From assembly GCF_003334355.1 (NCBI RefSeq), contig NZ_QOWP01000005.1: a DNA stretch of 64,000 nucleotides. One strand, written 5' to 3'. Positions 13,366 through 42,863 of this stretch are shown one piece after another (within the stretch, counting starts at the first letter, position 1; every line of letters begins with the position of its first letter). The notes beneath the pieces were generated by a model, which did no database searches, had not been told where the DNA came from, and saw only the letters and a list, made by a program, of their open reading frames with translations. Made by a program: the position numbers and the translations under genes. This DNA comes from Escherichia coli. GTDB lineage: Bacteria > Pseudomonadota > Gammaproteobacteria > Enterobacterales > Enterobacteriaceae.

Positions 13366-13470
<105 letters not shown>

Positions 13471-14416: not shown

Positions 14417-14440
14417 GATCTCTATCCATACGTGGTGTTG

Positions 14441-14476
14441 CCTGATGCGACGCTTGCGCGTCTTATCAGGCCTACA
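14441..14476. repeat. REP element in cysA-cysM intercistronic spacer
   Basis: gcctgatgcgacgcttgcgcgtcttatcaggcctac palindrome. Confidence 0.8.
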
Positions 14477-22788: not shown

Positions 22789-24093
22789 ATGAAACGGACA
22801 ATGCTCTATCTTTCTCTGCTGGCTGTTAGTTGTAGCGTCAGCGCCGCAAAATACCCTGTTCTGACAGAAAGTTCGCCAGAGAAAGCAGGGTTCAACGTCG
22901 AACGGCTTAACCAGATGGATCGCTGGATTAGCCAGCAAGTTGATGTCGGTTATCCCGGCGTAAACCTGCTGATCATTAAAGATAATCAGATTGTGTATCG
23001 CAAAGCCTGGGGAGCGGCGAAAAAGTACGATGGCAGCGTGTTGATGGAACAGCCTGTCAAAGCCACCACCGGGACGCTGTATGACCTGGCCTCAAACACC
23101 AAAATGTACGCCACGAACTTCGCCCTGCAAAAGCTGATGAGCGAAGGCAAACTGCATCCTGACGATCGGATTGCGAAATATATTCCGGGGTTTGCCGATA
23201 GTCCAAATGACACCATTAAAGGCAAAAACACCCTGCGGATTTCTGACCTGCTGCATCACAGCGGCGGTTTCCCGGCAGATCCGCAATACCCGAATAAAGC
23301 GGTCGCGGGCGCGTTTTATTCCCAGGATAAAGGCCAGACGCTGGAGATGATCAAGCGCACGCCGCTGGAATATCAGCCCGGCAGCAAACATATCTACAGC
23401 GATGTCGATTATATGCTGCTTGGATTTATCGTCGAGTCGGTTACCGGTCAGCCGCTTGACCGCTATGTTGAAGAGTCGATTTATCGCCCGCTCGGCCTGA
23501 CACATACGGTATTTAACCCGCTGCTGAAAGGCTTTAAACCGCAACAAATTGCCGCCACGGAATTGAACGGCAATACCCGCGATGGCGTGATCCATTTCCC
23601 GAATATCCGCACCTCCACTCTCTGGGGTCAGGTGCACGATGAAAAAGCCTTTTATTCGATGGGCGGCGTTTCCGGGCACGCAGGTTTGTTTTCCAATACC
23701 GGCGATATTGCGGTGTTAATGCAAACGATGCTGAACGGCGGGGGCTATGGCGATGTGCAGCTGTTCAGTGCGGAAACGGTGAAGATGTTCACCACCAGCT
23801 CTAAGGAAGATGCCACTTTTGGCCTCGGCTGGCGCGTGAATGGTAATGCCACCATGACGCCGACGTTTGGCACGCTGGCAAGCCCGCAAACCTACGGTCA
23901 CACTGGCTGGACCGGAACGGTGACCGTTATCGATCCGGTCAATCATATGGCGATTGTGATGTTAAGCAACAAGCCCCATTCGCCAGTTGCCGATCCACAA
24001 AAAAATCCCAATATGTTCGAAAGCGGTCAGTTACCAATTGCAACTTATGGTTGGGTAGTTGATCAGGTGTATGCGGCGTTGAAGCAAAAGTAA
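22789..24093 (+). CDS. yfeW: Penicillin-binding protein 4B / beta-lactamase-fold peptidase
   Basis: 434 aa from MKRTMLYLSLLAVSCSVSAA (signal peptide); SxxK motif in LASNTKMYA; track ORF start 22702 overlaps murP and is rejected. Confidence 0.9.
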   Translation: MKRTMLYLSLLAVSCSVSAAKYPVLTESSPEKAGFNVERLNQMDRWISQQVDVGYPGVNLLIIKDNQIVYRKAWGAAKKYDGSVLMEQPVKATTGTLYDLASNTKMYATNFALQKLMSEGKLHPDDRIAKYIPGFADSPNDTIKGKNTLRISDLLHHSGGFPADPQYPNKAVAGAFYSQDKGQTLEMIKRTPLEYQPGSKHIYSDVDYMLLGFIVESVTGQPLDRYVEESIYRPLGLTHTVFNPLLKGFKPQQIAATELNGNTRDGVIHFPNIRTSTLWGQVHDEKAFYSMGGVSGHAGLFSNTGDIAVLMQTMLNGGGYGDVQLFSAETVKMFTTSSKEDATFGLGWRVNGNATMTPTFGTLASPQTYGHTGWTGTVTVIDPVNHMAIVMLSNKPHSPVADPQKNPNMFESGQLPIATYGWVVDQVYAALKQK

Positions 24094-24095
24094 TA

Positions 24096-24132
24096 AAAAG
24101 GCCAGTCAGTTTTGTTACTGGCTGGCCTTTAA
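24096..24132. terminator. Bidirectional terminator between convergent yfeW and yfeX
   Basis: aaaaaggccagtcagttttgttactggctggcctttaa: long GC stem with flanking A/T runs. Confidence 0.75.
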
Positions 24133-24150
24133 TCAATGAATCAGAAACGC

Positions 24151-25134
<984 letters not shown>

Positions 25135-25145
25135 TCAGACGCAAA

Positions 25146-25721
25146 TTAACGCCGCCAGATAATTTTACTGACTTTCCAGTTTTTCAGGGTATCGTCCGAA
25201 GGCATTAACCCTTCAGGACCACGCCATTCCCCGCTGAACTGGTAGCTAATATGTTGACTGCCTTCGGCTTTACATTCGACGGCACGATTATCATCACCAT
25301 CAGCTTTTTGGCAATTGCCAAATGCTTTGCTGTAAAGGTCGCTAAACGGTGTACCGATTTTAACACCGGTGTCAGCAGGAATATCGCTATCCAGCACGTC
25401 AATGCGGCTGATCGTGCCTTGCTCGCCGTTAATCACCATCGCCACATTGTCGTCTTTCATCACTTCAAAAAAGCGCACCACGTTGCCGTTCGCGGTTTTC
25501 ATTCCGCTGCGCAGGCGATAATCGCCATCAAGCGCATCAGCAATGGCTTGTTCTTGCAGTGGTGTGGACGCCGTTAATTCACCCACGCCCTGCTCGCTCA
25601 CTTTGGTGGACGACCCAAACCAGTTCCACGGGTTAGCGGCAGACCAGTTAACTGACGACATCGTGGAACAGCCGGTCAGCATCAACGGCATAGCGCATAA
25701 CATTAAACGCAGCGATTTCAT
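25146..25721 (-). CDS. yfeY: Outer-membrane lipoprotein YfeY
   Basis: 191 aa; lipobox LTGC in MKSLRLMLCAMPLMLTGCSTM. Confidence 0.85.
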   Translation of the reverse strand: MKSLRLMLCAMPLMLTGCSTMSSVNWSAANPWNWFGSSTKVSEQGVGELTASTPLQEQAIADALDGDYRLRSGMKTANGNVVRFFEVMKDDNVAMVINGEQGTISRIDVLDSDIPADTGVKIGTPFSDLYSKAFGNCQKADGDDNRAVECKAEGSQHISYQFSGEWRGPEGLMPSDDTLKNWKVSKIIWRR

Positions 25722-25808
25722 GTCACTTCCTTTGGTTATTCAATAACGTTGCTTGGAGTGCAAATTCACCAAAAAGTGCCGTTAAAGGTTGATGACAAAC
25801 ACAAAATT

Positions 25809-25906
25809 GCCTGATGCGCTACGCTTATCAGGCCTACTTTCTCCTGCAATATATTGAATTTTCGATGTTTTGTAGGCCGGATAAGGCGTTCTCGCCGCAT
25901 CCGGCA
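25809..25906. repeat. REP/BIME pair
   Basis: gcctgatgcgctacgcttatcaggcctac and gtaggccggataaggcgttctcgccgcatccggca. Confidence 0.8.
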
Positions 25907-25927
25907 TAAACAAAGCGCACCTCTGCG

Positions 25928-26377
25928 TTATTCTTTTTCTTCATTAAAACAAGCGCGTAAACGTCGATTGGTCAGCAGCCAGATTAACGCCACAATATCC
26001 GCCACTACCAGCGCCAGACCGATACCGCTAACGGATTCACCGTTCAGCCACAGCCACGGTTGCCAGCAAAGTAAAACCACCTGCGCCAACAGCAACAGAA
26101 AATAGAGTACACGCCAGGTGCGAGGAAACGTAGCCCGCCGACCGCTCAACAAAAACGCCAGCACCGCCGGAATGCCAGGAATCAGCCCCAGCCAGAAATT
26201 ATCGTGATCGGGATAAAACAGATTTAGCAGCGCAGTACCCTGCTCGCGCGACGCACCGGCAATGACAAACAGCACCCAGGTTCGCGCCTGAAGCAATAGC
26301 ACAAGCCAGAAGAGCAAGGGTAAACGCAGGCGACCGTGCGCATCATAATGGACAGGATGAAACTCAGTACTCTTCAT
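25928..26377 (-). CDS. yfeZ: Inner-membrane protein YfeZ
   Basis: About 149 aa, hydrophobic; start [15 protein letters not shown] chosen (alternative ATG 6 nt upstream). Confidence 0.8.
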
Positions 26378-26789
26378 CTTCAATCAAACGCTTACCCAGA
26401 CTCAGCACGTCGGCGTGTTCATATCCCAGGCGTTCATACATTCCGAGCACCATGTCGTTATCTTCCGGCACGTTGATCTGAATTTTCGGGCAGCCACGAG
26501 CAATCAGCTTTTTCTCCAGCCGATTAAGCAACGCATTGGCAATCCCACGCCCACGAAACTCTGGATGCACGCCAAGATAATAAGCAGACCCGCGATGCCC
26601 GTCATAACCGCCCATCACCGTTCCGACCACGTCACCGTTTACCTCAGCGACCAAAAACAAACTGACGTCATGGTTCATCTTACGCTCGATGTCCATTTCC
26701 GGATCGTTCCACGGACGCAGCAAGTCGCAACGCTCCCAAAGGGTGATGACCTCTTCGAAATCTTCCTGGCGAAATACGCGTATCTCCAT
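26364..26789 (-). CDS. ypeA: GNAT-family N-acetyltransferase
   Basis: 141 aa from [14 protein letters not shown]; acetyl-CoA binding motif region [10 protein letters not shown]. Confidence 0.9.
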
Positions 26790-27002
26790 GGTATTCGTTA
26801 CCTTTTTGCGGGTTAAAAGGCTGATTATGGCGTGAACGGTCGAATTAGCCAATATCTGACGAAAATCGGTTGAAAAAGTGGCATAATGGGGAGTTGTCAA
26901 CTATTGAAATGAAAAGTAAAACAATTCTCAACAGCAAACCGTCGTAACGGATTACGCGATACGATATAACATCTGGAACTTTATTATTACAACTCAGGCC
27001 GT

Positions 27003-27872
27003 ATGAGCACTTTTAAACCACTAAAAACACTCACTTCGCGCCGCCAGGTGCTGAAAGCCGGTTTGGCTGCCCTGACGTTGTCAGGAATGTCGCAAGCCAT
27101 CGCCAAAGACGAACTTTTAAAAACCAGCAACGGACACAGCAAGCCGAAAGCCAAAAAATCTGGCGGCAAACGTGTCGTTGTTCTCGATCCAGGTCACGGC
27201 GGAATTGATACCGGAGCGATCGGACGCAACGGTTCGAAAGAAAAACATGTGGTGCTGGCGATTGCTAAAAACGTCCGTTCCATTTTGCGTAATCATGGGA
27301 TTGATGCGCGTTTAACGCGTTCTGGCGATACGTTTATCCCACTTTACGATCGCGTTGAAATCGCCCATAAACATGGCGCAGATCTGTTTATGTCAATTCA
27401 TGCCGATGGCTTTACCAACCCGAAAGCTGCCGGTGCTTCGGTATTTGCCCTCTCTAACCGTGGGGCAAGTAGCGCAATGGCGAAATACCTGTCTGAACGC
27501 GAAAACCGCGCCGATGAAGTTGCCGGTAAAAAGGCGACTGACAAGGATCACCTATTGCAACAAGTGCTGTTTGATCTGGTGCAAACAGATACCATTAAAA
27601 ATAGTCTGACGCTCGGCTCGCATATTCTGAAGAAGATTAAGCCGGTGCATAAACTGCACAGCCGCAACACCGAACAAGCGGCATTTGTGGTGTTGAAATC
27701 ACCGTCGGTTCCTTCGGTGCTGGTGGAAACCTCGTTTATCACCAACCCGGAAGAAGAACGGCTGTTAGGCACGGCGGCGTTTCGTCAGAAAATCGCCACA
27801 GCGATTGCTGAAGGCGTGATCAGTTATTTCCACTGGTTCGACAACCAGAAAGCACATTCGAAAAAGCGATAA
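27003..27872 (+). CDS. amiA: N-acetylmuramoyl-L-alanine amidase
   Basis: 289 aa; Tat-type signal (SRRQVLKAGLAALTL); amidase_3 fold. Confidence 0.95.
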   Translation: MSTFKPLKTLTSRRQVLKAGLAALTLSGMSQAIAKDELLKTSNGHSKPKAKKSGGKRVVVLDPGHGGIDTGAIGRNGSKEKHVVLAIAKNVRSILRNHGIDARLTRSGDTFIPLYDRVEIAHKHGADLFMSIHADGFTNPKAAGASVFALSNRGASSAMAKYLSERENRADEVAGKKATDKDHLLQQVLFDLVQTDTIKNSLTLGSHILKKIKPVHKLHSRNTEQAAFVVLKSPSVPSVLVETSFITNPEEERLLGTAAFRQKIATAIAEGVISYFHWFDNQKAHSKKR

Positions 27873-28775
<903 letters not shown>

Positions 28776-28780
28776 CTCCC

Positions 28781-29833
28781 TCACCCCCACTCCCGCATCC
28801 GCTGATGCAGCGTCAGTGACGGCTTCTCGGAAAACAGCTGCTGGTAATCCGTGGCAAATTGCCCCAGATGCCAGAATCCCCACTGCATGGCGGCGTCTTT
28901 TACCGTCATACTTTGCGACCACGGACTTATCAGTTCGCGGCGTACGGCGTTCAGGCGAATGCGTTTCAGCCACGCGTTCGGGCCAATGCCTAAAATAGCG
29001 TGAAACGCGTTTTGTAGCGTGCGGCGGCTGACATGCAGTTGATTACACAAATCCAGCACCGTCACCGGTTCGGACATGTTTTCCAGCACATATTCACGGG
29101 CGCGGGAAAGCAATCGACGGTAACTCTGATGACTGATGCTTTCCGCCGTCACCATTGGTTGCGCTTCTTCCAGCATGGCCCCCATCGCCATTAGCAAATT
29201 ATCCCCCAGCACTTTTCGCACTGCAGGCTGATGGAGATTTTCCGGATTCTCGCAAAACGTCGCCAGCGCCTGTTGGACAAAGCCCCACAGCGCGGCTTTA
29301 TGCTGCTCTTTCACTTCCAGCGCCGACTGGTTACGCAACATATGTAATACCCGATCCGGGTTATGCAAAAAGTTAGCCTGCCGGGTGATGACATCTTCAG
29401 AAAGCACCACGCCCAGGATCGTGTAATCATCCGGCGTGCTCAGTTCAAATTCAGTGCCACCAGGGCGGGTGGCGATTTCCGCGCTTCCCAGACATTGCGA
29501 ACCGATAAATCCCTGCTCACCGCGCGTCGCCGGAATGCCAAACCAGAACGAGTTCGGCCAGACCAGGCACGACTGACGCAGCGCCAGACCGGTGTATTCA
29601 CGAAAAACCTGAATATCATCGAGTAGAATTTCCGTAAATTCACCATGAAACTTGCCCGGATGCAGCTGATCGTAAATCTGCTGCCAGGCGGTAATCGTTA
29701 AAGCATGTTCATAGACATCCGTTGTCTGTCGTTGATGAACATTATCCACTTCGACCTTCGGCGTGAGCTTCAGGTTTTCGGGTAAGGGTTCATGATAAAG
29801 ATGGTGCAAATTGGCTGTACGGGTCTTTTTCAT
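28781..29833 (-). CDS. eutR: AraC-family activator of the eut operon
   Basis: 350 aa; C-terminal AraC HTH; last gene of eut cluster. Confidence 0.95.
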
Positions 29834-29878
29834 GATGTTAATGCCGGGTGTTGTAGGACACCCGGCACCTCCGACAGG

Positions 29879-30379
29879 TTAATGGGGCTTGAGACGATAA
29901 CGACTACTGCGTTTACGTAACGTCCCGGCAGAAAAGAGCTGTTCGAGCGCATTTCTGGCTTTTTCCAGCGGCCAGCCAAAGTGGGCAGCCACTTCTCCTG
30001 CCGTCATTCCCTGACGTACTGATGTTAACAGCGCCAACAACTCGTCAGCAGATTCCGCGACGATAACTGGCGCGTCGGGTTCCCTTACGGGTTGCTTCGG
30101 CTGGCGGTTAAAGCCAGTAACCAGCCACTGGGTGTCATCGTCTGGCCGACCGATCTCCTTGCGGCTGATGACACGCCCGGTACGCATCGCGGCAGCACAA
30201 CCTGCGTCCAGCGCCGCACGACACGCCGCCAGATCGCCTTCCACCACCAGCGTTAAGCGACCAGGGTCAAGCACTTCGTGACTGAGCAGACGAACGTTAG
30301 CTGCTTTGAGCATGGCATCCGCTGCATCTATCGCGGCGACCATGCCGTCCACTTCCAGCAATCCCAGTGCATTGATCAT
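29879..30379 (-). CDS. eutK: Microcompartment shell protein EutK (BMC domain + C-terminal nucleic-acid-binding-like domain)
   Basis: 166 aa from MINALGLLEVDGMVAAIDAADAMLKAANV. Confidence 0.93.
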   Translation of the reverse strand: MINALGLLEVDGMVAAIDAADAMLKAANVRLLSHEVLDPGRLTLVVEGDLAACRAALDAGCAAAMRTGRVISRKEIGRPDDDTQWLVTGFNRQPKQPVREPDAPVIVAESADELLALLTSVRQGMTAGEVAAHFGWPLEKARNALEQLFSAGTLRKRSSRYRLKPH

Positions 30380-30391
30380 CGGCAACCTCCG

Positions 30392-31051
30392 TTACGCACG
30401 CTGGATTGGATTACGCGCGATTTCCAGCACTGCATCGGTAAAGGCGTTACAGGCTGCTTTACACGCTGCCTGGCTACCGGTTAAAAATGCTGCCGAGTAG
30501 TTGGTTTCAGACGGTGGCGGGACATAGGTCGCCAGCTGTACGTCGGCAGACTTCAGGGCTGCATCAATGCCATAGGTCGCTTCCAGCGGCGGTGCCACCA
30601 GATACGCCATCGGATCGCCAAGCGTGATCCCGGCGGTTGATGAGAGATAAGAACCGGTACGCGAAACTACATGTGCCAGGAATGCCGTATCTTGCGCGTC
30701 ATTAGCCCACTGGAAAGCTGCGCCATTTTCAATATGCGCAATCATCGCATCCAGACCTGCACGCACTTCCGCCGGGTTTGGCCCACCAAGCATAATCAGC
30801 ACTTCACCGGCAGTCGGTGACGGGCCGTGTGCAGCGCCCGCATATAGCGAGCGGCCATACACCACTTCCACCATCGCCTGCTTGGTCGCTTCATCAGCGG
30901 CAATGTAGGTGACGTCATCGGAGTCGGCAGAAATCAGACCGAGGCTACGAATATGCGGCGGCAATTTCAGTTCACGCGCAAAATCGGCGTTAACGGAGGC
31001 AATCACCCGCATAGCGGTGACAGACGGTCGAATCAAATCTAAAGCTGGCAT
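30392..31051 (-). CDS. eutL: Microcompartment shell protein EutL (tandem BMC)
   Basis: 219 aa. Confidence 0.95.
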
Positions 31052-31060
31052 GATGCCTCC

Positions 31061-31948
31061 TTATCGGGTCATGTTGATGCCGGATGCTTTCTGCTCCAGC
31101 ATACGTTTCGCCAAATCCACAATGACGGCTGCGGCTTCAACCGGCGGCGTGCCGCCCTGGTGAATGTTAGAGATACAGGTGCGATCGGCCTCAACGGTGG
31201 TCGCCATACGCGGCGAGTAAACGGCGTAGCAGGAGAGGCTTTCTGACTGACCCAACCCCGGACGTTCGCCCACCAGCAGGATCACTACTTTCGCGCCGAG
31301 GATCTCACCGATCTGATCTTCAATCTTCACGCGACCATAACGAACAAAGAATGGTGTACCGACTTTCAGCCCGGCCTGTTTCAGGCCCGCCATCAGCGGT
31401 GGCAGGATCTCTTCGTAGTTCACGGTGATCGCATCAGTTGACAGGCCATCAGAAATAACGACCTGTACGTCCGGATTGGCAACACACTGCGCTTTCAGCG
31501 CTTCAACAGCTTCTGCACACAGGCGGCGGCCCATATCCGGGCGAGTCAGGTAGAGATTTTTGTCGCTAATTTCAGAGCGTACTTCCAGCAAGCCCTGCGC
31601 TTTCACCCACTCTTCCGGCACTTCTTTCAGTACGGTATCTTTCGAACGAGAGTGATCGGCCAGGAAACGCAGCAGCGCCTGCGTACGTGGACGCGGACCG
31701 GCACGACCGGTACAAACGCGGGCCACGGTGCTGCGGCGCAGTTCTGTTAATACGTCTGCGCGATGCGGATTTTCAACACCAATCCACGCTTTTGCTTCAG
31801 CGGAACCTAAATCCAGCGCACAGCTTTCCGAGGTCACCGGTGCCGCACAGTTGGTGGTGGCGCACTTTGCTTCTGACGGCGCGGGGGCCGCTTGTCCCAT
31901 TGACGCCATCACGCTGCGTACAATTTCTTCAATCTGTTTTTGATCCAT
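31061..31948 (-). CDS. eutC: Ethanolamine ammonia-lyase small subunit
   Basis: 295 aa. Confidence 0.95.
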
Positions 31949-31968
31949 GATATGTTATCTCCGCGTCA

Positions 31969-33330
31969 TCAGAAGAACAGTGACGGATCGCCCGCCCGTT
32001 TGGTCAGGCGACCGTTTGCCATAATGCCCATGCTTTCCAGCCAGCGTTCAAACTCCGGTGACGGGCGCAGGTTGAGTAACTGACGCACAGTGGCGGTATC
32101 GTGGAATGCGGTGGTCTGGTAGTTGAGCATGATGTCATCACCCAGCGGCATCCCCATGATGTAGTTGCAGCCTGCGGTGGCGAGCAGGATCATCAGGTTT
32201 TCGTTGAGGTTCTGGTCAGCGTCAGCGTGGTTGGTATAACAGCAGTCACAGCCCATAGAGATGCCACTCAGCTTGCCCATAAAGTGATCTTCTAAGCCAG
32301 CACGGATAATCTGGCGGTCGTTGTAGAGATACTCCGGCCCAATAAAGCCGACCACGGTGTTGACGATAAACGGATCGTAATGACGCGCCAGCCCGTAGTT
32401 ACGTGCTTCCATCGTTACCTGGTCTGCGCCGAAGTTAGCGCCAGCGGATAGCGCAGAGCCTTGTCCGGTTTCGAAGTAGAGGCAGTTTTCCCCGGCGATA
32501 CGGTTGAACTCCGCGCCCACTGCGCGCGCTTCGTCGAGCATCGCCAGCTCCACGCCAAACTCTTTCAGCCCTTTTTCGCTGCCACAGATACTCTGGAAAA
32601 TCAGCCCGCCCGGTGCGCCACGACGGATCGCTTCGATCTGGGTGGTGACGTGCGCCAGTACACAGCCCTGAGTTGGGATGTTGAATTTGTCGATCACGCC
32701 ATAGATGGTATCCAACACGCGGCTTAAGTTTTCCACGTCGTCAGTCACCGGGTTAACGCCGATCACCGCATCGCCCACCCCGAAGGAAAGCCCTTCGTAG
32801 ATTTGCGCGGCGATACTTTGCACGTCGTCACGGGTGTCATTTGGCTGCAAACGGGCGCTAAAGGTGCCCGGAATACCGATGGTGGTATTGGCCTTTTTGA
32901 TTACCGGCATTTTCTTCGCGCCGTAGATCAGGTCCGCGTTGGAGCAAATCTTCGCTACCGCCGCGACCACTTCCGAGGTCAGCCCTTTGCGGGTAAAGGC
33001 AATGTCGTCCACGCTGGTTTCATCGCTCAGCACATACTCACGCAGTTCGCTGATGCTCCAGTTTTTAATCTGGTTGTAGGCCGTTTCGTTAACATCGTCC
33101 TGAATCAGCCGCGTCACGCAGTCATCTTCATAGGCAATCACCGGATTATTGCGGATGTCCGCTACGGTCATTTCCGACAACACCTGCTTTGCCGCCACGC
33201 GCTCCTGTGAGCTTGCCGCTGCGACGCCCGCCAGCACATCCCCCGAACGCAGTTCGTTGGCTTTAGCCAGCACCTCTTTTACATCCTTAAACTGATATAC
33301 ATTGCCGAACAATGTGGTCTTTAGTTTCAT
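31969..33330 (-). CDS. eutB: Ethanolamine ammonia-lyase large subunit
   Basis: 453 aa. Confidence 0.97.
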   Translation of the reverse strand: MKLKTTLFGNVYQFKDVKEVLAKANELRSGDVLAGVAAASSQERVAAKQVLSEMTVADIRNNPVIAYEDDCVTRLIQDDVNETAYNQIKNWSISELREYVLSDETSVDDIAFTRKGLTSEVVAAVAKICSNADLIYGAKKMPVIKKANTTIGIPGTFSARLQPNDTRDDVQSIAAQIYEGLSFGVGDAVIGVNPVTDDVENLSRVLDTIYGVIDKFNIPTQGCVLAHVTTQIEAIRRGAPGGLIFQSICGSEKGLKEFGVELAMLDEARAVGAEFNRIAGENCLYFETGQGSALSAGANFGADQVTMEARNYGLARHYDPFIVNTVVGFIGPEYLYNDRQIIRAGLEDHFMGKLSGISMGCDCCYTNHADADQNLNENLMILLATAGCNYIMGMPLGDDIMLNYQTTAFHDTATVRQLLNLRPSPEFERWLESMGIMANGRLTKRAGDPSLFF

Positions 33331-33341
33331 AAGTCGTTCCC

Positions 33342-34745
33342 TCAGGAAGGAAATGCGAGTGATTTCACCGTCACCGGCACAACCGATCCGCCAAAAAGAG
33401 GCGTACCAATGTCGATATAGTCCCCCGCGCGGACAATCACTTCGTCAATGACTGCCAACGGGAGTTGTTGTAGCTGTGGGCGCAACAACATGCCCAGAGC
33501 TTTACCAAAGTCCTGCCCGGCCACCACCAGCAGGGGATGCGGATTCGGAAAACGCGCGACGAAATCGACCAACGCGTTGATGACCGTCAGTACCGCGGCG
33601 TAACGCACAGGCAGCGAGGCGGGAAGCGCCAGCACGTACGCGTCAGTTTTGGGATCAAGATCCAGCTGAATCAGCGCCTGTTGCCAGGCCCCCACCAGAT
33701 CCGTTTCATCAATCGGGATCGCCACCGGCAAATTGCGCAGCGGCAGTTGTACGCCCTCAAGCCAGATTGTGCTGCCAGAGAGCGAAAGGGTATGCGCGCC
33801 CGCGCCAATCACCGTGGCGCGCACGGTTTGCGCCGGAAACTGTACGTTCATCTCACGCAGGCGCGGATGGTCATGCAGCGCAGTTGCCAGCAGCGGGCCA
33901 ATATCGGCAAAACAGAACGGGTCGGCGGGCTGGTGGCGATAACATTCGCCCACGCCGCCAGAAAGCGTAATGATTTCGGGCGTAACACCTGCGGGCAGCA
34001 AACCGGTTTGCATCAATGCCTGCGCGAGCGGTGAGAGCGTTCCGTCAATCACTTCGACAATCAGTTCTGCCATCCGCCGGGTCACCTGCACCAGCTGCGC
34101 GCCGGTCAGCGAACGGGCGTCGGTGCCTGCACCGAAGCACTCATCCACAATCATCTGCCCCGGTTTATGAGCGTAAACCACGCGCCCGTGGCTGTCGGTT
34201 TCCAGCAGGCGACCACCGACGTTGAGGCAGGCAGTGCCGCTGATTTTTCCGGCATCGAACAGGGCGTAGTTCGCGGTGCCACCGCCGATGTCGATATTCA
34301 GTACCCGACACAGCCGTTGTTCAGAAAGGGTTTGTGCCCCGGCTCCGTGACCGGCGATCACGGATTCGAGGTGCGGCCCGGCGCTGGCAACGACAAAATC
34401 GCCCAGCGACTGAGAGAGCGCCATCACCGCCGGGCGAGCATTGCGGGTTTTCGCGCTTTCACCGGTGATGATGATGGCACCAGAATCAACGCTTTCCGGC
34501 TCAATACCCGCAGCATGATATTGCTCGAGTATTAAGGTTTTCAGTTCCGCTTCTTTTAAACCGCCCTGTTTATCGACAGGGGTAAAGAACACCGGACTTT
34601 GCCAGCTAATTTCGCGTTTAATGAATTCGTAGCGCGGCACCTGCGACACCGCCGCACGGTTAACCAGCTCCAGCCGGGAGAAAATCACCTGGGTGGTGGT
34701 GGTGCCGATATCGATACCGACGCTCAATAGCTGGCGAGTGTTCAC
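33342..34745 (-). CDS. eutA: Ethanolamine ammonia-lyase reactivase
   Basis: 467 aa; contiguous with eutB (11-nt spacer). Confidence 0.95.
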   Translation of the reverse strand: MNTRQLLSVGIDIGTTTTQVIFSRLELVNRAAVSQVPRYEFIKREISWQSPVFFTPVDKQGGLKEAELKTLILEQYHAAGIEPESVDSGAIIITGESAKTRNARPAVMALSQSLGDFVVASAGPHLESVIAGHGAGAQTLSEQRLCRVLNIDIGGGTANYALFDAGKISGTACLNVGGRLLETDSHGRVVYAHKPGQMIVDECFGAGTDARSLTGAQLVQVTRRMAELIVEVIDGTLSPLAQALMQTGLLPAGVTPEIITLSGGVGECYRHQPADPFCFADIGPLLATALHDHPRLREMNVQFPAQTVRATVIGAGAHTLSLSGSTIWLEGVQLPLRNLPVAIPIDETDLVGAWQQALIQLDLDPKTDAYVLALPASLPVRYAAVLTVINALVDFVARFPNPHPLLVVAGQDFGKALGMLLRPQLQQLPLAVIDEVIVRAGDYIDIGTPLFGGSVVPVTVKSLAFPS

Positions 34746-35968
34746 GATTGTGCCTCCGCTTCGGTTTTAGTCGCGGTCGCGTCTTCTTTTGGCACCAGCA
34801 TCATCGCCACGCCAATCGCCGTTACGCCGCCGATCAACTTGCCGACAATCATCGGGAAGATCATGGCGTTCATGTTGGCAGCGGCGAAGCCTAAGTGGTC
34901 GCCCAGGGCGAAAGCAGCGGAAACGGCGAAGGCGCAGTTGATGACTTTGCCGCGGGTATCCATCTGCTTCATCATGCCGAACATCGGGATGTTGTTGGCA
35001 AGCGTTGCCACCATGCCGGCTGCCGCGATGTTGTTCATATTCAGTACTTTACCGACGCTCATCAGCGGTTTTTCAAACCAGCGAGTCAGCAGCAGCACCA
35101 TCGGATACGCCCCTAACAGAACGCAGGAGATAGAACCGATAACTTCAATGGCGCGCATCACCTCACCGGGTTTATCGCCAGGGGCCATAAAGATAGGATC
35201 CAGACCGGGGATCAGTTCCCAGCCAAGCAGGAATTTCACTACCGCAGCGGCAAGACCGAGGGTGATCAATGCAACGAGGAATTTGGCGAAGATCTGGAAG
35301 CCGTTGATCATTTTTTCCGGGATGAATTTCAGCCCCAGCGCCACCAGAATCGCAACAATGATCACCGGGATCATGTTCATCAGGATCAGGGCGAAAGTGA
35401 ATTCCACCGGCTGGCCGTTGATCTGCACACCGGAGTACATAGCAACCAGACCACCAGCGATACAACCAATCGGAATGGTCACAATGCCCGCCAGCACGCC
35501 GAGCGCCAGATAACGACGGTCAGAAGGTTCGATAATGCCGAGCGCCACCGGAATGGAAAACACAATCGTTGGCCCCATCATCGACCCGAGAATTAACCCA
35601 GAGTATAGCCACGCGGCTACGTCGCCGCCCGCCAGCTCTTTGGCGAGGAAGAAGCCGCCCATATCGCACGCCAGCAGTGTTCCGGCGAACATCGATGGGT
35701 TAGCGCCGAGCATTTCGTAAACCGGAATAATTACCGGCCCGAGAACGTGAGCCAGTACCGGTGCCAGCGCGGTCATACCGACCATCGCCAGGCCCAGTGC
35801 GCCCATTGCCATAAAGCCTTCTTCGAACTGACCGCCTGATCCTTCGATACTTTTACCGAACTTACCGAGGAAACGAGCAGAACCGCCGAACTGCGACAGG
35901 ATCCTGTCTACGGCAGCTATCAGCATAAAGAACATCATGATGTACATGATGATTTCGTTAATTCCCAT
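34742..35968 (-). CDS. eutH: Ethanolamine permease/facilitator
   Basis: 408 aa polytopic membrane protein. Confidence 0.95.
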   Translation of the reverse strand: MGINEIIMYIMMFFMLIAAVDRILSQFGGSARFLGKFGKSIEGSGGQFEEGFMAMGALGLAMVGMTALAPVLAHVLGPVIIPVYEMLGANPSMFAGTLLACDMGGFFLAKELAGGDVAAWLYSGLILGSMMGPTIVFSIPVALGIIEPSDRRYLALGVLAGIVTIPIGCIAGGLVAMYSGVQINGQPVEFTFALILMNMIPVIIVAILVALGLKFIPEKMINGFQIFAKFLVALITLGLAAAVVKFLLGWELIPGLDPIFMAPGDKPGEVMRAIEVIGSISCVLLGAYPMVLLLTRWFEKPLMSVGKVLNMNNIAAAGMVATLANNIPMFGMMKQMDTRGKVINCAFAVSAAFALGDHLGFAAANMNAMIFPMIVGKLIGGVTAIGVAMMLVPKEDATATKTEAEAQS

Positions 35969-35998
35969 CGCCTTTACTCCCTGTTAGTTGTTATTTAT

Positions 35999-36183
<185 letters not shown>

Positions 36184-36184
36184 T

Positions 36185-37372
36185 TTATTGCGCCGCTGCG
36201 TACAGGCCGACAATCTGCTCCAGGCTGGCGGTACGCGGGTTACTGCGCAGACAAATATCTTCCAGCGCGGCCTGCGCCCATGCGCCGTAATGCGCAGATG
36301 TCGCACCAACATCGCCCAGTCGTTTACCAATCCCAACTTCCGCAATCAGCTCACTTACCGCGTTAATAGCGTCACGATCGTCGGATTTTTTAGTTCGCAG
36401 TGCCCGACCAATCTGACTAAAGCGTTCACGACAAACCATCCGGTTAAATTCCATCACCGTTGGCAGCAACATGGCGTTCGCGAGACCGTGCGGAATATGC
36501 AGCGCCGCGCCCGGCTGATGCGCCATCGCGTGGCACAACCCAAGACCCGCACTGGAAAACGCCATTCCCGCCATACATGAAGCCAGTAACATGCTCTCGC
36601 GCGCGGCAAGGTCGTGACCGTAGCCCACCGCTTTCGGCAGCGATTTGCCAATCATCGCAATGGCACCAATCGCCAGGCTGTCGGTAAACGGTGTAGCGTT
36701 CAGGGCGCTGTATGCTTCAATGGCATGGGTTAACGCATCAATGCCGGTCATCGCCGTGACATGCGACGGCACACCTTCGGTCAATGCGGCGTCGAGGATC
36801 GCCACATCCGGCATCAGCGAGGCATGGGCTAACACCTGCTTGCGCCCGCTCACCGCGTCGATAATCACCGTTACATTGGTGGTTTCAGAGCCGGTTCCGG
36901 CGGTCGTTGGAATGGCAATCAGCGGCAAGCGCGGTTGCAGAACGCTGGTTTCTGACATCTCTGCCAGCGTGCTATCGGGGTTCGTCACCAGCAACGCCAC
37001 GGCTTTCGCCGCATCCAGCACCGAGCCGCCGCCAAATGCGATCACCCCATCACAGCCTGACTCACGCAACTGCGCCACGGCTGCACACACGTCGGTAATG
37101 CACGGTTCGCCCACCGGACATGGCCAGAGCGTCATGGCGATGCCTTTAACAGCCAGGCTGCGCGTCAGCCCGGCGGTCATCCCCGCCTGATGCAAAAAGC
37201 TGTCTGCCATCACGAACAGATGTTTCAGCCCACGCGTTTGCGCTTGCTGCCCGCAACTGCTCACCGCGCCCGGACCGCAAAGCGTCACCGGTGGAACGCT
37301 AAATGTTTTTACCCGTTGCAGATTCAGGGTATCGAACGCCTGAAAGAGCGCGGTCTGCAATTCATTTTGCAT
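36185..37372 (-). CDS. eutG: Iron-containing alcohol dehydrogenase
   Basis: 395 aa from MQNELQTALFQAF; Fe-ADH fold. Confidence 0.93.
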   Translation of the reverse strand: MQNELQTALFQAFDTLNLQRVKTFSVPPVTLCGPGAVSSCGQQAQTRGLKHLFVMADSFLHQAGMTAGLTRSLAVKGIAMTLWPCPVGEPCITDVCAAVAQLRESGCDGVIAFGGGSVLDAAKAVALLVTNPDSTLAEMSETSVLQPRLPLIAIPTTAGTGSETTNVTVIIDAVSGRKQVLAHASLMPDVAILDAALTEGVPSHVTAMTGIDALTHAIEAYSALNATPFTDSLAIGAIAMIGKSLPKAVGYGHDLAARESMLLASCMAGMAFSSAGLGLCHAMAHQPGAALHIPHGLANAMLLPTVMEFNRMVCRERFSQIGRALRTKKSDDRDAINAVSELIAEVGIGKRLGDVGATSAHYGAWAQAALEDICLRSNPRTASLEQIVGLYAAAQ

Positions 37373-38198
37373 ATAGCCCCTCCGCTTTCTCTCGCCCACT
37401 ACTGGCGATCGCCAGCGGGGTCATAAACAAACTGTGCTGCGGTAAATGCACCTGTAACGCCGGGAATTGTTTGCGAAACAGTTCCGCCACGCCCGGTTGC
37501 AAACAAGAGCCGCCCGCCAGCCATAAATCAGTAATGCCCTGCCCTTCAATATGCCGGGCGACAATGTCCGCCATTTTTTCGTACACCGGTTTCACCGCAG
37601 GCCAAATCTCTTCACCGTGACCGCGCTTGTACTGCTCCGCCTCTTCCAGCGAAATACGGCGATTTCCGGCGAGAGTCAGAGAGATGTGATGTCCGCCGGT
37701 GGCTTCATCCGCCGAGTACGTCACCTTGCCCTTTTTCACGATGGCAATGCCGGTAGTGCCGCCGCCGATATCCACTACACCGGCGTTGTCCAGTTGCAGC
37801 AGATCCGCAACTGCGGTTGGCTCATCCAGCACATGGCTCACTTCCAGCCCGGCAGATTCCAGCACGTTGATGGAAATACGCGGGTCCGTACCTGGAGGAA
37901 ATGAAGTCGCCGCATGGCTAAAACGAAGACCGAATTGCTGCTCAAGAGTGTCGAGATGGCGACGAACAATGGTGACCGCACCGAAGAAATCCCAGACGAT
38001 GCCGTCGCGGACCACATCGGCCCAGTCGAGGCATACCGCCACCGGCTGACCGTCGCGGTCAACAACCATCGACACCACATCGCAGGTGCCCAGATCCACC
38101 CCCAGCCACAGCGGAGATTCCGTCGCGGCGGGCGTCTGGTTACACAGCGTTGCCGCCGTTTGCAGACGTGGGGTGAGCCATTGTTCGTCGTGCGCCAT
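37362..38198 (-). CDS. eutJ: Hsp70/actin-fold chaperone-like protein EutJ
   Basis: 278 aa; DIGGGTTG nucleotide-binding motif. Confidence 0.93.
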   Translation of the reverse strand: MAHDEQWLTPRLQTAATLCNQTPAATESPLWLGVDLGTCDVVSMVVDRDGQPVAVCLDWADVVRDGIVWDFFGAVTIVRRHLDTLEQQFGLRFSHAATSFPPGTDPRISINVLESAGLEVSHVLDEPTAVADLLQLDNAGVVDIGGGTTGIAIVKKGKVTYSADEATGGHHISLTLAGNRRISLEEAEQYKRGHGEEIWPAVKPVYEKMADIVARHIEGQGITDLWLAGGSCLQPGVAELFRKQFPALQVHLPQHSLFMTPLAIASSGREKAEGLYAK

Positions 38199-38208
38199 CT
38201 GTTACTCC

Positions 38209-39612
38209 TTAAACAATGCGAAACGCATCGACTAATACACAGCGACGCAGACGGACAAACGTACGCGCGCTGGTTACCCCTTCACCGGTTGGCGTGGTGA
38301 TGGTCATGGTGGTCCAGCCTTCCCCGCCCAGCCCCAGCCCGGCAATGCACGGTCCGTTCTTAACGAAAATGCTGGTATCAATAGCATTCGCCATCTGGTT
38401 CATGTTTTCGATGTTGCGCGAGTGCATTGCCGCCGTGTGGTGGCAACCGCCTTCCAGTTTCACCGCCAGCGCAATGGCATCCGCCACGTTGGCGACGCGC
38501 ACGACGGGCAGCACCGGCATCATCAGTTCGGTCACGGCAAACGGATGTTCTGCAGTGGTTTCCACAAACAGCAAACGCGTTTCTTGCGGCACGTTCAGGC
38601 CGATTGCCGCCGCGATTTTCGCCGCATCGCGACCAACCCAGTCACGGCTGACGGTGCCTTTTCCGCGCTCGTCGATATTTTTCAGCAACACCGGTTGCAG
38701 CTGCTGCGCCTGTTCTGCGGTCAGTTTCACCGCGTGCTGGCCTTCCATCAGACGCATCAGTTCATCGGCTACGCTATCAACAACAATCAGTACCTTTTCG
38801 TCGGCACAAATGATGTTGTTATCGAAAGAAGCGCCTTTGACGATGGACTGAGCGGCACGGGCGAGGTCGGCGGTTTCATCCACCACTACCGGCGGGTTGC
38901 CAGCGCCTGCGGCAATCAGACGTTTATTGGTGTGTTTACGCGCCGCTTCTACTACCGCTTCGCCGCCGGTCACCACCAGAAGGCCGATGCCCGGAAACTT
39001 GAACAAACGCTGCGCGGTTTCGATATCCGGATTTGCCACAGTAACCAGTAAGTTTTCCGGCCCGCCTGCGGCAACAATCGCCTGGTTGAGCAGCGTGATC
39101 GCCCGCTGGGAGACTTTTTTCGCCGCCGGATGCGGGGCAAAAATGACGCTGTTGCCCGCGGCAATCAGGCTGATGGCGTTATTAATTACGGTTGCCGCCG
39201 GGTTAGTGGACGGAGTTACCGAAGCCACCACGCCCCAGGGCGCGTTTTCAATTAAAGTCAGGCCGTTGTCGCCGGTCAGCACCTGCGGAGAGAGACACTC
39301 AACGCCTGGCGTGCCGCGCGCCTGAGCGACGTTTTTGGCAAATTTATCTTCAACGCGGCCCATGCCGGTTTCACTGACGGCAAGTTCCGCTAAATCTCTG
39401 GCGTGTTTTTCGCCTGCCTCACGAATGGCAGCAATGGCTAACTGGCGCATTGCCACGCTTTTTAACCCTTGCTGGGCGACTTTGGCTGCCGCAACGGCGT
39501 CATCCAGGGACGCGAAAACGCCCATCTCATGAACGGCGGCGGGCGGCATGTCACTGCTTTGCATTTTCAGCAGTACCGCTTTCACCACCTGTTCAATATC
39601 CTGTTGATTCAT
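38209..39612 (-). CDS. eutE: CoA-acylating acetaldehyde dehydrogenase
   Basis: 467 aa aldehyde dehydrogenase fold. Confidence 0.95.
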   Translation of the reverse strand: MNQQDIEQVVKAVLLKMQSSDMPPAAVHEMGVFASLDDAVAAAKVAQQGLKSVAMRQLAIAAIREAGEKHARDLAELAVSETGMGRVEDKFAKNVAQARGTPGVECLSPQVLTGDNGLTLIENAPWGVVASVTPSTNPAATVINNAISLIAAGNSVIFAPHPAAKKVSQRAITLLNQAIVAAGGPENLLVTVANPDIETAQRLFKFPGIGLLVVTGGEAVVEAARKHTNKRLIAAGAGNPPVVVDETADLARAAQSIVKGASFDNNIICADEKVLIVVDSVADELMRLMEGQHAVKLTAEQAQQLQPVLLKNIDERGKGTVSRDWVGRDAAKIAAAIGLNVPQETRLLFVETTAEHPFAVTELMMPVLPVVRVANVADAIALAVKLEGGCHHTAAMHSRNIENMNQMANAIDTSIFVKNGPCIAGLGLGGEGWTTMTITTPTGEGVTSARTFVRLRRCVLVDAFRIV

Positions 39613-39623
39613 GATGTTCTGCC

Positions 39624-39911
39624 TTATTTGTGGAAAATTACCTGACCGCCAGACACCACCTCATCGACAATGCCAATCACGCACAGATCGACCGGTGACG
39701 TTTCGCTTTTATGCGCCTGGCGGGCGGAACTGCCACTCACCAGTAACACCCACTCCCCGGTCCCCGCGCCAATATTGTCGATGGCGACGGCGCATTGCCC
39801 GTCAGGATTACCTTGTGAATCAATCATTTCCACCATCAGCAATTTGTCATGCGCCAGTCCGTGATGGCGTACGGTACAAACAATTTGTCCAGTGACGACT
39901 GCCAGTTTCAT
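39624..39911 (-). CDS. eutN: Microcompartment vertex protein (EutN/CcmL family)
   Basis: 95 aa; MKLAVVTGQIVCTVRH. Confidence 0.93.
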   Translation of the reverse strand: MKLAVVTGQIVCTVRHHGLAHDKLLMVEMIDSQGNPDGQCAVAIDNIGAGTGEWVLLVSGSSARQAHKSETSPVDLCVIGIVDEVVSGGQVIFHK

Positions 39912-40017
39912 ACCCGCCTCCGTGGCGTATTTCAGGTAAAAGCTCCCCCTACCCTCCGCAGAAGGTAAAATGAAAAAGGAGAGAGCGTGACGCCCGAATC
40001 GACGTCACACAGGGTGA

Positions 40018-40311
40018 TTACAGGTTGCTGCTATCGCCTTTCAGGCCGATCGGGAAGACTTCTTCCAGGTCGCCGTGCGGACGCGGGATAACGTGTACAG
40101 ATACCAGCTCGCCGATACGCTGTGCCGCTGCGGCACCTGCATCGATCGCGGCTTTACAGGCTGCAACATCACCACGAACCATGGCAGTACACAGGCCGCC
40201 GCCAATCTGCTTAACACCAACCAGCTTGACGCGCGCAGCTTTCACCATCGCGTCAGAAGCCTCAATCAGTGCAACCAGGCCCCGGGTTTCGATCATTCCT
40301 AATGCTTCCAT
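40018..40311 (-). CDS. eutM: Major microcompartment shell protein (BMC-H)
   Basis: 97 aa from [26 protein letters not shown]; longer track ORF rejected. Confidence 0.93.
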
Positions 40312-40349
40312 TGTGCTTTCCTCTTTATCAGGGTCCAGAACGGGACCGT

Positions 40350-41366
40350 TCATTCAACCAGTGTTTGTAAACTGCTTTCGCGGTTCACTTCTGTCTGACG
40401 CGGCACAGCTGCCACCAGCGCCAGCTCGATAATTTCCTGCACGCTACAACCACGAGAGAGATCGTGCATCGGCGCGGCAAGTCCTTGTATCAGTGGCCCG
40501 ACGGCACGATATCCGCCGAGTCGTTGTGCGATTTTGTAACCAATATTTCCGGCTTCCAGCGACGGAAAAACCATCACATTGGCCTTGCCCTGTAGCGGGC
40601 TGGCAGGCGCTTTTTGCGCCGCCACTTCCGGCACGAAGGCGGCGTCAAACTGTAACTCGCCATCCACCACCAGCTTTGGTGCGCGCTCACGGACGATTTC
40701 TGTCGCCTGCTGGACGTTAGCAACACAGGGGTGACGGGCGCTACCATTGCTGGAAAACGACAGCATCGCCACGCGCGGCTCTTCTCCGGTGATGGCGCGC
40801 CAGGTTTCGGCACTGGCAAGCGCGATATCCGCCAGCTGCGCCGCCGTCGGCTGTGGCACCACGCTGCAATCGGCAAAGCCCAACGCCGGGCCGCTGTACT
40901 GTGGCAACATCAGGAAAATGGAAGAGAGCGTTTTACAGCCTGGCTGCAAGCCGATAATGCGTAATCCGGCACGCAGCACATTTGCCGTGGAAGAGAGGTT
41001 GCCCGCGATACAGACATCCGCTTTACCGGCGCTGACCATTGCTGCGGCGAACATCAGAGGGTCGGTAAGTTTTTCCAGCGCATCCGGCGGCGTTTTTTCG
41101 CCCGCGCGGGCCAGCCAGCGATGAGCAAATTCTTCCCGCATTGCGAGGTTGCCATGCGGATCAATCACCTGTAGCCCGTCCATCGCCACGCCGTGACTGA
41201 GCGCAAACTGACGAAGTTCAAACGGATTGGCGACCAGAATGGGCGTTGCCAGACCTTGTTGATGTAAATATTGCGCGGCTTTCAGCACACGTTGGTCTAA
41301 CGCATCCGGAAAAACCACTCTGGCGGGCGCTCGCAACGCCAGTTCACGACAACGTTCAATAATCAT
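40350..41366 (-). CDS. eutD: Phosphotransacetylase
   Basis: 338 aa PTA fold. Confidence 0.95.
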
Positions 41367-42165
41367 TGCGTTCCCCCAGTCGTTGTTGGATCTGCTTCAC
41401 CGTTAGCGGCTGCTTCGTTACGCTCAGGATCATCATCACGTAGACCGTGCTGGAAAGGCGGTTCAGCGCCTGCAAAATGTCCGGGCGTAATACTTCAAAG
41501 CTGCGGGTGATAAAGACCTGCGCCGCTACGGTTTCGGTTTCCCGCACTTTGGTGCGTAGCAGATTGAGCAACGCAGCATCGCGCCCGTGGCTGGCTTCCG
41601 GCACCAGATGATCGTGGTCGAGATAGCGCAGCGGCTGATGAGAAAGCCGATGCAGATCTTCGTCAGAAAGCCCGACAATCGCCTGGCAGCCCAGCGGTTC
41701 CCCCAGCGCATCGGCGCGCATAATGTTGCCAAGACGCGAACGGATATCCGCCAGCCACGGCTGCCACGGTTCCGCCAGTTCAATTTGCAGCCACACTACC
41801 AGCGCAATGGTGCTGTCGAGAACCGCGCGAAAACCCAGACGCGGATCGCTTTTGGCGACCATTTTTTCCGCCGACAGGTGAGTCAGCGTATCCGGCTTTT
41901 TTGCCACCGGCTGGCGACACAGTTCGCAGCACGCCTGCGGATGTTCATCGCTACTGGTCAGCCCATGAACGGGCTGCGGCTGCTGCTGTTCATCGTCAAC
42001 AAACAGGCGGCCCTGCTCGTCAATAAACTTGATGCGCAGATGGCGGCTTTCCAGCAACTCCCGGGCAGAGGGCGTCAGGCGACTGTCCGCAGGGAGATGG
42101 ATCTCTGCGCCTTCGCTGAGCGTATGGTTCGCTCTTAGCCATGCTTCGGTGATGAAATCTTTCAT
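41356..42165 (-). CDS. eutT: Corrinoid (cobalamin) adenosyltransferase
   Basis: About 267-269 aa; cysteine motif CCELC; start codon not resolved to within 2 codons. Confidence 0.9.
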
Positions 42166-42863
42166 AGGGATTGCCAGTTAGCCGGCCAGGCGACATACAG
42201 GAATTTCACGCTGGATGTCGTACCAAATTCGATGCTGGAGCCTTTCGGGATAAACATCACGTCGCCTGCTTTGGCGATCATGGTTTGGCCTTCGTGGCGA
42301 ACATGCAGCTCCCCTTCCAGCACCATGTCGATTTCGTCGTAGTTCAGGGTCCACGGGAAGAATGCGTTCTCCCACTGCATAAAACCGGCGGCCATGCTGC
42401 TGCCGTCGTCTCCGGTCACAAGATCAGTCAAGCCCACGCAATGCGGCTCTGCGCCGTCGAAACGACCAAACTTGACGCTACTGCCATCAATCACTTTGAT
42501 GCCGCCTTTGCCGGTCACCGATTTGAAGCTCGGCTGCATTGCGCCCTGCTCCAGCGACTGTTTTTCCTTCATCACTTTTTCCATCAGCTGTGCGACCAGG
42601 CTTTCGGTAAACTGGCCTTCCGGCAGCTGGGCAATGATGGTTTCGCGGATGCGCTGGCTTTCGGTTTTGTCGGCTGGCACGCTGGCGGGCACGGACGCCG
42701 TTACCGGGATCGATTCATCACATTCGGTGATGGTAAAACCCAGTAGATCCGCCACTTCACGGGCTTCCGGGGTAATAATGCTGGCGCGCAGAACCACGGA
42801 CATTGCCTGTTCGCCGCGCGCGTGTGCTTCACGAATATCATTCGCTGTGATGAGTTTTTTCAC
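42162..42863 (-). CDS. eutQ: Cupin-fold protein EutQ
   Basis: 233 aa. Confidence 0.93.
   Translation of the reverse strand: MKKLITANDIREAHARGEQAMSVVLRASIITPEAREVADLLGFTITECDESIPVTASVPASVPADKTESQRIRETIIAQLPEGQFTESLVAQLMEKVMKEKQSLEQGAMQPSFKSVTGKGGIKVIDGSSVKFGRFDGAEPHCVGLTDLVTGDDGSSMAAGFMQWENAFFPWTLNYDEIDMVLEGELHVRHEGQTMIAKAGDVMFIPKGSSIEFGTTSSVKFLYVAWPANWQSL

Follow-up and report, generated by a model that had tools for sequence, protein, structure and literature searches.

The Abutting Convergent hemF and eutR Genes of Escherichia coli: An Ordinary Junction Whose Read-Through Is Probably Ended by Rho

Rho-dependent termination regions in E. coli have been mapped genome-wide by Adams et al. (2021, PMC7815308). 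Just over half (51.5%) of the 1078 Rho regions reported run antisense to genes, and few (4.5%) are found within 50 nt of a gene end. A second kind of ending, the overlapping bidirectional terminator (Ju, Li and Liu 2019; Wang et al. 2022), serves convergent genes whose transcripts would overlap, and it requires a stem-loop at which polymerase pauses, sharp RNA 3′ ends, and independence from Rho. A third arrangement is found in the excludons and overlapping 3′ UTRs of Listeria and Staphylococcus, in which one transcript extends antisense over its neighbour as a long, stable antisense RNA and the two genes are expressed reciprocally. Here, we compare with these systems the convergent pair hemF and eutR of E. 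coli, the stop codons of which are 5 nt apart. The junction is already known in the sense that the arrangement is present in every E. coli annotation and that a Rho site for it stands in a published table.

The junction was studied in a stretch of E. coli DNA of 64,000 nt, called the window below. Gene identities were taken from NCBIfam equivalog models and from the RefSeq annotation of identical DNA, and the two sources agreed. The gene amiA (N-acetylmuramoyl-L-alanine amidase A; NF007652, 578 bits; annotated as such in RefSeq) is an ORF at 27003-27872 on the + strand, immediately upstream of hemF on the same strand. The hemF ORF (oxygen-dependent coproporphyrinogen III oxidase; NF003727, 471 bits) occupies 27876-28775 and ends with a TAA stop codon at 28773-28775. 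On the opposite strand, eutR, which encodes an AraC-type activator and is the last gene of the eut operon, occupies 28781-29833 (NF007522, 789 bits). Its TGA stop codon is seen as TCA on the + strand at 28781-28783. Between the two stops lies the spacer CTCCC (28776-28780), and the same spacing is found in the K-12 annotation. The original prediction that hemF and eutR converge with stop codons 5 nt apart is thus borne out by the ORFs and the sequence, and its interval, 28775-28781, brackets the spacer exactly. Upstream of eutR on the - strand, the ORF map shows the remainder of the eut operon, eutK through eutP, at 29879-43317 (eutK, L, C, B, A, H, and so on, to about 43.3 kb), with NCBIfam matches for EutK, EutB, and EutP. 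The operon is uninterrupted here, without the CPZ-55 prophage, and is the source of the - strand transcription that reaches the junction. The adjoining of eutB and eutA (31969-34745) likewise shows that the operon is intact, whereas K-12 MG1655 has the cryptic prophage CPZ-55 beside eutB; the window is thus not K-12 DNA, despite its near identity from amiA to eutR. Over that segment, just 1 of 2831 bases distinguishes it from K-12 MG1655, with no indel, and published K-12 data can therefore be used for this junction; K-12 coordinates were transferred to the window with a constant offset of 2,525,349.

A spacing of 5 nt is commonplace for convergent genes in E. coli. Two arbitrary 50-kb stretches of the K-12 annotation contain 12 convergent pairs, six of which overlap or are at most 5 nt apart. 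The stretch 1,000,001-1,050,000 has eight such pairs, with gaps of -4, 69, 75, -38, 31, 44, -4, and 114 nt, the tight ones being zapC/ycbX (-4), sxy/yccS (-38), and yccX/tusE (-4). The four pairs of the stretch 3,400,001-3,450,000 have gaps of 2, 228, -25, and -4 nt; the tight ones are yhdU/envR (+2), yrdA/yrdB (-25), and mscL/arfA (-4). The ORF map of the window gives gaps of 42-337 nt at its other six convergent junctions. The hemF/eutR spacing is therefore not unusual.

The original prediction held, in addition, that no terminator lies between the two genes. For intrinsic terminators this is confirmed by two scans. A consensus terminator scan found no stem-plus-T-run at or near the junction and gave, for positions 26500-31000, four matches against 5.8 expected from shuffled sequence. 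A relaxed scan of our own, which asks for a hairpin of -5 kcal/mol or lower followed by at least four T in eight bases, found no canonical terminator within about 200 nt of either stop. Its candidates on the hemF strand were all poor, and the 200 nt that follow the eutR stop on the eut strand had none. Past that stop, neither scan gave an intrinsic-terminator-like site on the eut strand as far as the end of amiA. As a positive control, the consensus scan detects a 12-bp terminator at 8236-8263 elsewhere in the window. That site, just past an ORF at 7242-8213, is a perfect 12-bp palindrome between A and T runs, AAAAAAGCACCT...AGGTGCTTTTTT, and a textbook bidirectional intrinsic terminator. The hemF/eutR junction, then, has no stem-loop followed by a U tract.

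RNA 3′-end maps give a matching picture. The Term-seq tables of Adams et al. 2021, which cover three growth conditions, have no entry for hemF or amiA, and they show no sharp in vivo RNA 3′ end at the junction (PMC7815308). In that work eutR appears once, and the entry (supplementary file 2) is for a Rho region rather than a Term-seq 3′ end; the tables list no coordinate between K-12 positions 2553700 and 2554299 (PMC7815308). Six supplementary files of Yan 2018 contain none of amiA, hemF, and eutR. The missing discrete Term-seq 3′ ends fit the diffuse, trimmed ends of Rho-type termination rather than an intrinsic terminator.

One structure does span both stop codons. This is an interrupted palindrome at 28762-28786, GGGATTGGG-TGTAACT-CCCTCACCC, with arms at 28762-28770 (GGGATTGGG) and 28778-28786 (CCCTCACCC). 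Together with the convergence of the genes, it is what an overlapping bidirectional terminator would call for: both polymerases would pause at the palindrome, and head-on and trailing collisions would release them. The folding of the palindrome was compared with that of dinucleotide-preserving shuffles, and it was indistinguishable from them on both strands (z = -0.64 and -1.01 for a 46-nt segment; z = +0.54 and -0.66 for a 33-nt segment). The stability of the palindrome is thus no better than that of shuffled sequence, neither strand has a U tract, and a functional hairpin across the stops was rejected. Collision-driven release is, in addition, at odds with the lack of sharp 3′ ends for hemF or eutR in the Term-seq tables, with the Rho sensitivity of the hemF-strand read-through described below (the class is reported to be Rho-independent), and with a 1-nt deletion that the O145 lineage carries in one palindrome arm. 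It would also need frequent polymerase traffic, and hemF and eutR are weakly expressed in standard media. We therefore hold a terminator of this kind to be highly improbable.

A hidden RNA element at the junction was also considered and rejected, since an Rfam search of 24000-34000 (E <= 1) gave no match there. The search returned only weak matches to REP-derived families at 25830-25911 and one chance snoRNA match. The matches at 25830-25911 are sub-threshold, to the REP-derived naRNA4 and ES036, and mark a REP sequence of the window.

The fate of transcripts that leave hemF is documented by published data. Adams et al. 2021 (eLife, PMC7815308; supplementary file 2) place a Rho termination region at K-12 2554640 (+), opposite eutR in antisense orientation. 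This position is 29291 in the window, 516 nt past the hemF stop. The ratio of downstream to upstream reads there is 18/78 = 0.23 without bicyclomycin and 106/102 = 1.04 with it (PMC7815308). The Rho score is 4.5, with p = 8.9e-8 (Adams et al. 2021, PMC7815308); the score uses 800-nt windows, giving it low resolution, and the read counts at 2554640 are low. These K-12 data, transferred to the window, show the rise in downstream RNA upon inhibition of Rho. Because the ratio goes from 0.23 to 1.04 under bicyclomycin, Rho ends most of the hemF-strand transcripts about 0.5 kb into antisense eutR, although the score does not prove that these transcripts start at the amiA-hemF promoter. The earlier suggestion that hemF transcription could run antisense into eutR is accordingly right in that published K-12 RNA enters antisense eutR, but the passage is not unchecked, as Rho curtails most of it.

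The composition of the hemF-strand RNA agrees with such an ending. The untranslated RNA begins with a C-rich, nearly G-free segment, 28776-28800 (+), that has 17 C and 1 G in 25 nt and is a possible first loading tract for Rho. The 78-nt segment directly past the hemF stop, 28776-28853, has a C/G ratio of 1.67, at about the 93rd percentile of the window. The strongest C>G tract of the hemF-strand RNA in antisense eutR is found farther on, at 29114-29256 (+), where the composition profile points to a candidate rut site. Its 78-nt segment 29140-29217 has C 0.38, G 0.15, and a C/G ratio of 2.5, above the 99th percentile of the window, and lies 75-150 nt upstream of the published Rho position 29291. 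Rut-like RNA, rich in C and poor in G, is thus present upstream of the termination zone, with the reservation that C-rich tracts alone are a weak predictor of Rho sites.

It could also be that the Rho-sensitive RNA antisense to eutR is not hemF read-through at all and arises from a spurious antisense promoter inside eutR, the hemF transcripts themselves ending near the stop via an unrecognised signal or by rapid 3′ trimming. Peters et al. (2012) reportedly traced the majority of Rho-suppressed antisense RNAs in E. coli to promoters within genes. In addition, the 800-nt interval upstream on which the Rho score draws is part hemF coding sequence and part antisense eutR. However, a scan found no promoter-like site on the + strand between 28776 and 29291, Term-seq gives no primary 3′ end for hemF, and no terminator signal was found. 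We think an internal promoter unlikely, though it is the alternative that we take most seriously.

The published Rho position coincides with two weak hairpins of the hemF strand, within 29262-29316 (+), that were brought up by the terminator scans. The first, 29262-29296, has a folding energy of -14.7 kcal/mol; the second, 29292-29306, is a weak 5-bp stem of -6.7 kcal/mol with a T-rich tail to 29316. It might be speculated that these hairpins serve as a polymerase pause or as a stop for exonucleases. Their place exactly at the published Rho position, together with the tails TTTATGCT and TCTTTCAC, could be read more boldly, as a weak intrinsic terminator inside eutR (either hairpin followed by a T-rich tail) that Rho would merely assist. 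However, the tails are poor U tracts, terminator scan matches in the region are fewer than in shuffled sequence (four against 5.8 expected), no Term-seq 3′ end is found there, and the read-through is sensitive to bicyclomycin, so a weak terminator is very unlikely to be what ends the RNA.

Another Rho region of the same strand is found antisense to eutB, at K-12 2558053 (+), with a Rho score of 23 and p = 3e-86 (PMC7815308). It corresponds to about position 32704 of the window, is far stronger than the region at 2554640, and is near the CPZ-55 insertion of K-12, which the window lacks.

Transcription from the eut side has been observed at the junction in a different strain. A lacZ transcriptional fusion beside the eutR stop of E. 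coli 536 gave 37 Miller units on ethanolamine and was otherwise undetectable (PMC10710832). The 57-nt junction of strain 536 is identical to that of the window. It follows from the activity on ethanolamine that polymerases cross the eutR stop under eut induction, at a modest level. The suggestion that transcription of the eut operon could run antisense into hemF and amiA is thus plausible and partly documented: induced transcription reaches the junction, and beyond it may continue into hemF-amiA.

Two tracts of the eut-strand RNA have the composition expected of Rho loading. The first 91 nt past the eutR stop, 28780-28690 (-), antisense to the 3′ end of hemF, have C 0.29, G 0.15-0.18, and C/G ratios of 1.64-1.92, at about the 93rd-98th percentile; the value of 1.92 is that of 28767-28690. 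From this profile we infer a Rho loading tract at 28690-28780. The second tract, at 27949-28091 (-), is antisense to the 5′ part of hemF, 690-830 nt past the eutR stop, and its excess of C over G is very strong: C is 0.35-0.45 and G 0.14-0.24, and the C/G ratio rises from 1.6 at the edges to 3.0 at the centre, with 2.5-3.0 over 28052-27962. Untranslated RNA rich in C and poor in G is thus present past the eutR stop, which by itself is a weak predictor. The table of Adams et al. 2021, obtained in LB without ethanolamine, has no Rho region antisense to hemF or amiA (PMC7815308). Given the two C-rich tracts and the lack of an intrinsic-terminator-like site, Rho-dependent termination inside antisense hemF is the likely end of the eut-strand RNA.

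Taken together, we consider it probable that hemF/eutR is an ordinary abutting convergent pair at which read-through is ended by Rho, a fate documented for the hemF strand and deduced from base composition for the eut strand. The proposal is as follows. Two unrelated transcription units, amiA-hemF (+ strand) and the 15-kb eut operon with eutR as its last gene (- strand), meet tail to tail with no intrinsic terminator encoded, and a polymerase that passes its own stop codon would go on to transcribe the neighbouring gene in antisense. Since the read-through RNA is C-rich, G-poor, and not covered by ribosomes, Rho could load on it and free the polymerase a few hundred bases farther on. On the hemF strand, loading would likely take place at 28776-28853 and/or 29114-29256, with termination at about 29291. 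On the eut strand, the likely loading sites would be 28780-28690 and/or 28091-27949. The tight spacing would simply be the state of the Escherichia junction without a REP insertion.

The last point rests on a comparison of 63 eutR-containing loci, taken from one-genome-per-species contigs and checked for a convergent hemF. The gap between the two genes is 5 nt at the Escherichia-type loci (L006-L008), 8 nt in a Pluralibacter MAG, 19 nt in Intestinirhabdus alba, and 54-150 nt at 23 loci from Citrobacter, the Klebsiella oxytoca group, a Pseudocitrobacter MAG, and Salmonella enterica subsp. arizonae. Five loci have true inserts of 425-1784 nt between intact hemF and eutR genes, and the apparent gaps of 190 and 514 nt at two loci are an artefact of truncated eutR. 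The more distant genera (Morganella, Dickeya, Pectobacterium, and others) have no hemF beside eutR. Most of the 54-150-nt spacers are REP/BIME palindromes, e.g., GCCTGATGGCGCTACGCTTATCAGGCC and GCCGGATAAGACGC...GCGTCGCATCCGGC, in varying number and arrangement; the junctions of Citrobacter, the Klebsiella oxytoca group, and S. arizonae have one to three of them. A REP was recognised as an imperfect palindrome of 30-40 nt with the consensus GCC(G/T)GATG...CTTATC(C/A)GGCCTAC, and no REP core is present in 28700-28860. The E. coli junction is simply the REP-free state of the hemF/eutR junction. A conserved, selected spacer was considered and rejected, as 5 nt is confined to Escherichia among the 63 loci, relatives having 8, 19, 54-150, or more than 400 nt.

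Elsewhere in the window, REP/BIME palindromes are found at 13368-13465, 14440-14475, 25809-25905, 36073-36182, 49522-49576, and 60838-60894. Three of them are at other convergent junctions, and one is in the eutH-eutG gap within the eut operon.

Within the species, the 57-nt junction stretch was matched, at a coverage of at least 80%, in 5284 of 5426 complete E. coli genomes (~97%). Variants of several kinds are found. In 36 genomes, mainly O145:H28, one C is missing from a run of five C just inside the 3′ end of eutR. This frameshift extends EutR by 7 residues, to 357 aa ending in ...WGEGVTPNP, and gives a 17-nt overlap with hemF, as in E. coli O145:H28 RM13514 (L002, 660-676); O157:H7 retains the 5-nt spacer. 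A rare allele in E. coli GZ2408P has eutR annotated as 1119 nt, with a 67-nt overlap with the 3′ end of hemF (L070, 360-426). E. coli WL297 has an island with T6SS Tli3-immunity and TPR genes between hemF and eutR (L004, 1-1490). Since a frameshifting deletion, overlaps, and insertions are all tolerated within E. coli, a constrained element at the junction is argued against.

The junction is a recurrent insertion point. A 1784-nt insert in E. whittamii (L009, 4060-5843) encodes a TacA-type antitoxin (PF08681, 3e-25) beside a weak GNAT match. NCBIfam models gave no meaningful match to the proteins of this insert (MobA scored 23.6 bits against a cutoff of 80), and Pfam was used instead. At loci L029, L030, and L032, the inserts are REP arrays (425-910 nt) and a stretch of 973 nt with an ORF of 226 aa, by appearance a putative lipoprotein. 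The eutR of E. coli 720632 (L001, 3382-4434) is annotated as a pseudogene because of an internal stop, although over its 3′-terminal 420 nt it matches the window exactly.

Some of the loci compared carry doubtful species labels. Three eutR fragments that are 95-99% identical to E. coli, on contigs of 411-457 nt labelled Bacillus hominis and Prolixibacteraceae (L062-L064), look like contamination of those assemblies. The ‘Citrobacter sp.’ MAG HRGM_Genome_0066 has both an E. coli-type junction with 99% EutR identity and the 5-nt spacer (L006) and a Citrobacter-type junction with a 54-nt REP spacer (L038), which suggests a mixed bin.

It is tempting to see in the contact of the two genes a regulatory coupling akin to an excludon. 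Upon induction of eut by ethanolamine and B12, polymerases and antisense RNA entering hemF-amiA would lower HemF and AmiA, through transcriptional interference or because RNase III would cut the RNA duplex; OxyR-driven transcription of hemF would conversely dampen eutR. Transcription does cross both stop codons, no intrinsic terminator is in the way, and the 5-nt spacing is present in about 97% of E. coli genomes. However, about three quarters of the hemF-strand read-through is lost to Rho within 0.5 kb, and at 37 Miller units the induced eut transcription at the junction is weak. Nor is the tight contact conserved, as close relatives have 54-150 nt of REPs or islands of 0.4-1.8 kb in its place, and 6 of the 12 K-12 convergent pairs sampled come as close. 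A search of the full-text literature turned up no reciprocal expression data for hemF and eut; for antisense transcription or Rho action at the two genes, its one specific find was the reporter of strain 536. Coupling of this kind seems to us distinctly unlikely. Its full form, in which the junction couples the pathways so that strong induction of the 17-gene eut operon drives polymerases antisense through hemF-amiA and measurably lowers the oxygen-dependent haem-synthesis enzyme HemF, peroxide-induced hemF transcription dampens the auto-activator eutR, and the REP-free junction makes this tighter, is one to which we give very little credence. If it were true, the loss or absence of the REP spacer in Escherichia would mean tighter coupling than in Citrobacter or Salmonella. 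We see no sign that the arrangement is special or regulatory, and the junction would gain biological interest only with evidence that HemF or AmiA levels respond to eut induction.

Read as an ordinary pair policed by Rho, the junction has some practical consequences. Cassettes or reporters placed between eutR and hemF, as in strain 536, sit in transcription from both sides, and sharp 3′ end bands for hemF or eutR are not to be expected. More generally, hemF/eutR is a clean and checkable example of a rule: numerous gene pairs in E. coli leave no space for a terminator, and the antisense read-through that results is kept in check by Rho.

Set beside the known systems, the junction compares as follows. 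Other tight convergent pairs of K-12, such as mscL/arfA, zapC/ycbX, yccX/tusE, and yhdU/envR, have gaps of -38 to +2 nt and, like hemF/eutR, no room for a terminator. The pair mscL/arfA differs in that its overlap carries a structured RNA, with an annotated arfA-derived sRNA, whereas hemF/eutR has neither structure nor RNA family. REP/BIME palindromes between convergent genes are present at the orthologous junctions of relatives and at three other junctions of the window, in contrast to the mere 5 nt of the E. coli hemF/eutR junction. Overlapping bidirectional terminators share with hemF/eutR the convergence of the genes and transcripts that would overlap. Neither their shared stem-loop nor their Rho independence is found at hemF/eutR, where the palindrome folds like shuffled sequence, the Term-seq tables show no sharp ends, and the hemF-strand read-through is Rho-sensitive. 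Excludons resemble the junction in that one transcript extends antisense over the neighbouring gene, but the antisense RNA at hemF/eutR is curtailed by Rho. The closest likeness is with the Rho-dependent termination of untranslated read-through and antisense RNA in E. coli (Peters et al. 2012; Adams et al. 2021), with which hemF/eutR shares the increase in RNA upon inhibition of Rho, the C-rich tract upstream, and the antisense position. The hemF-strand site, hundreds of bases past the stop codon and with no sharp 3′ end, is itself among the 1078 published regions (PMC7815308); on this strand we see no difference from the class, and the site is a typical member of it.
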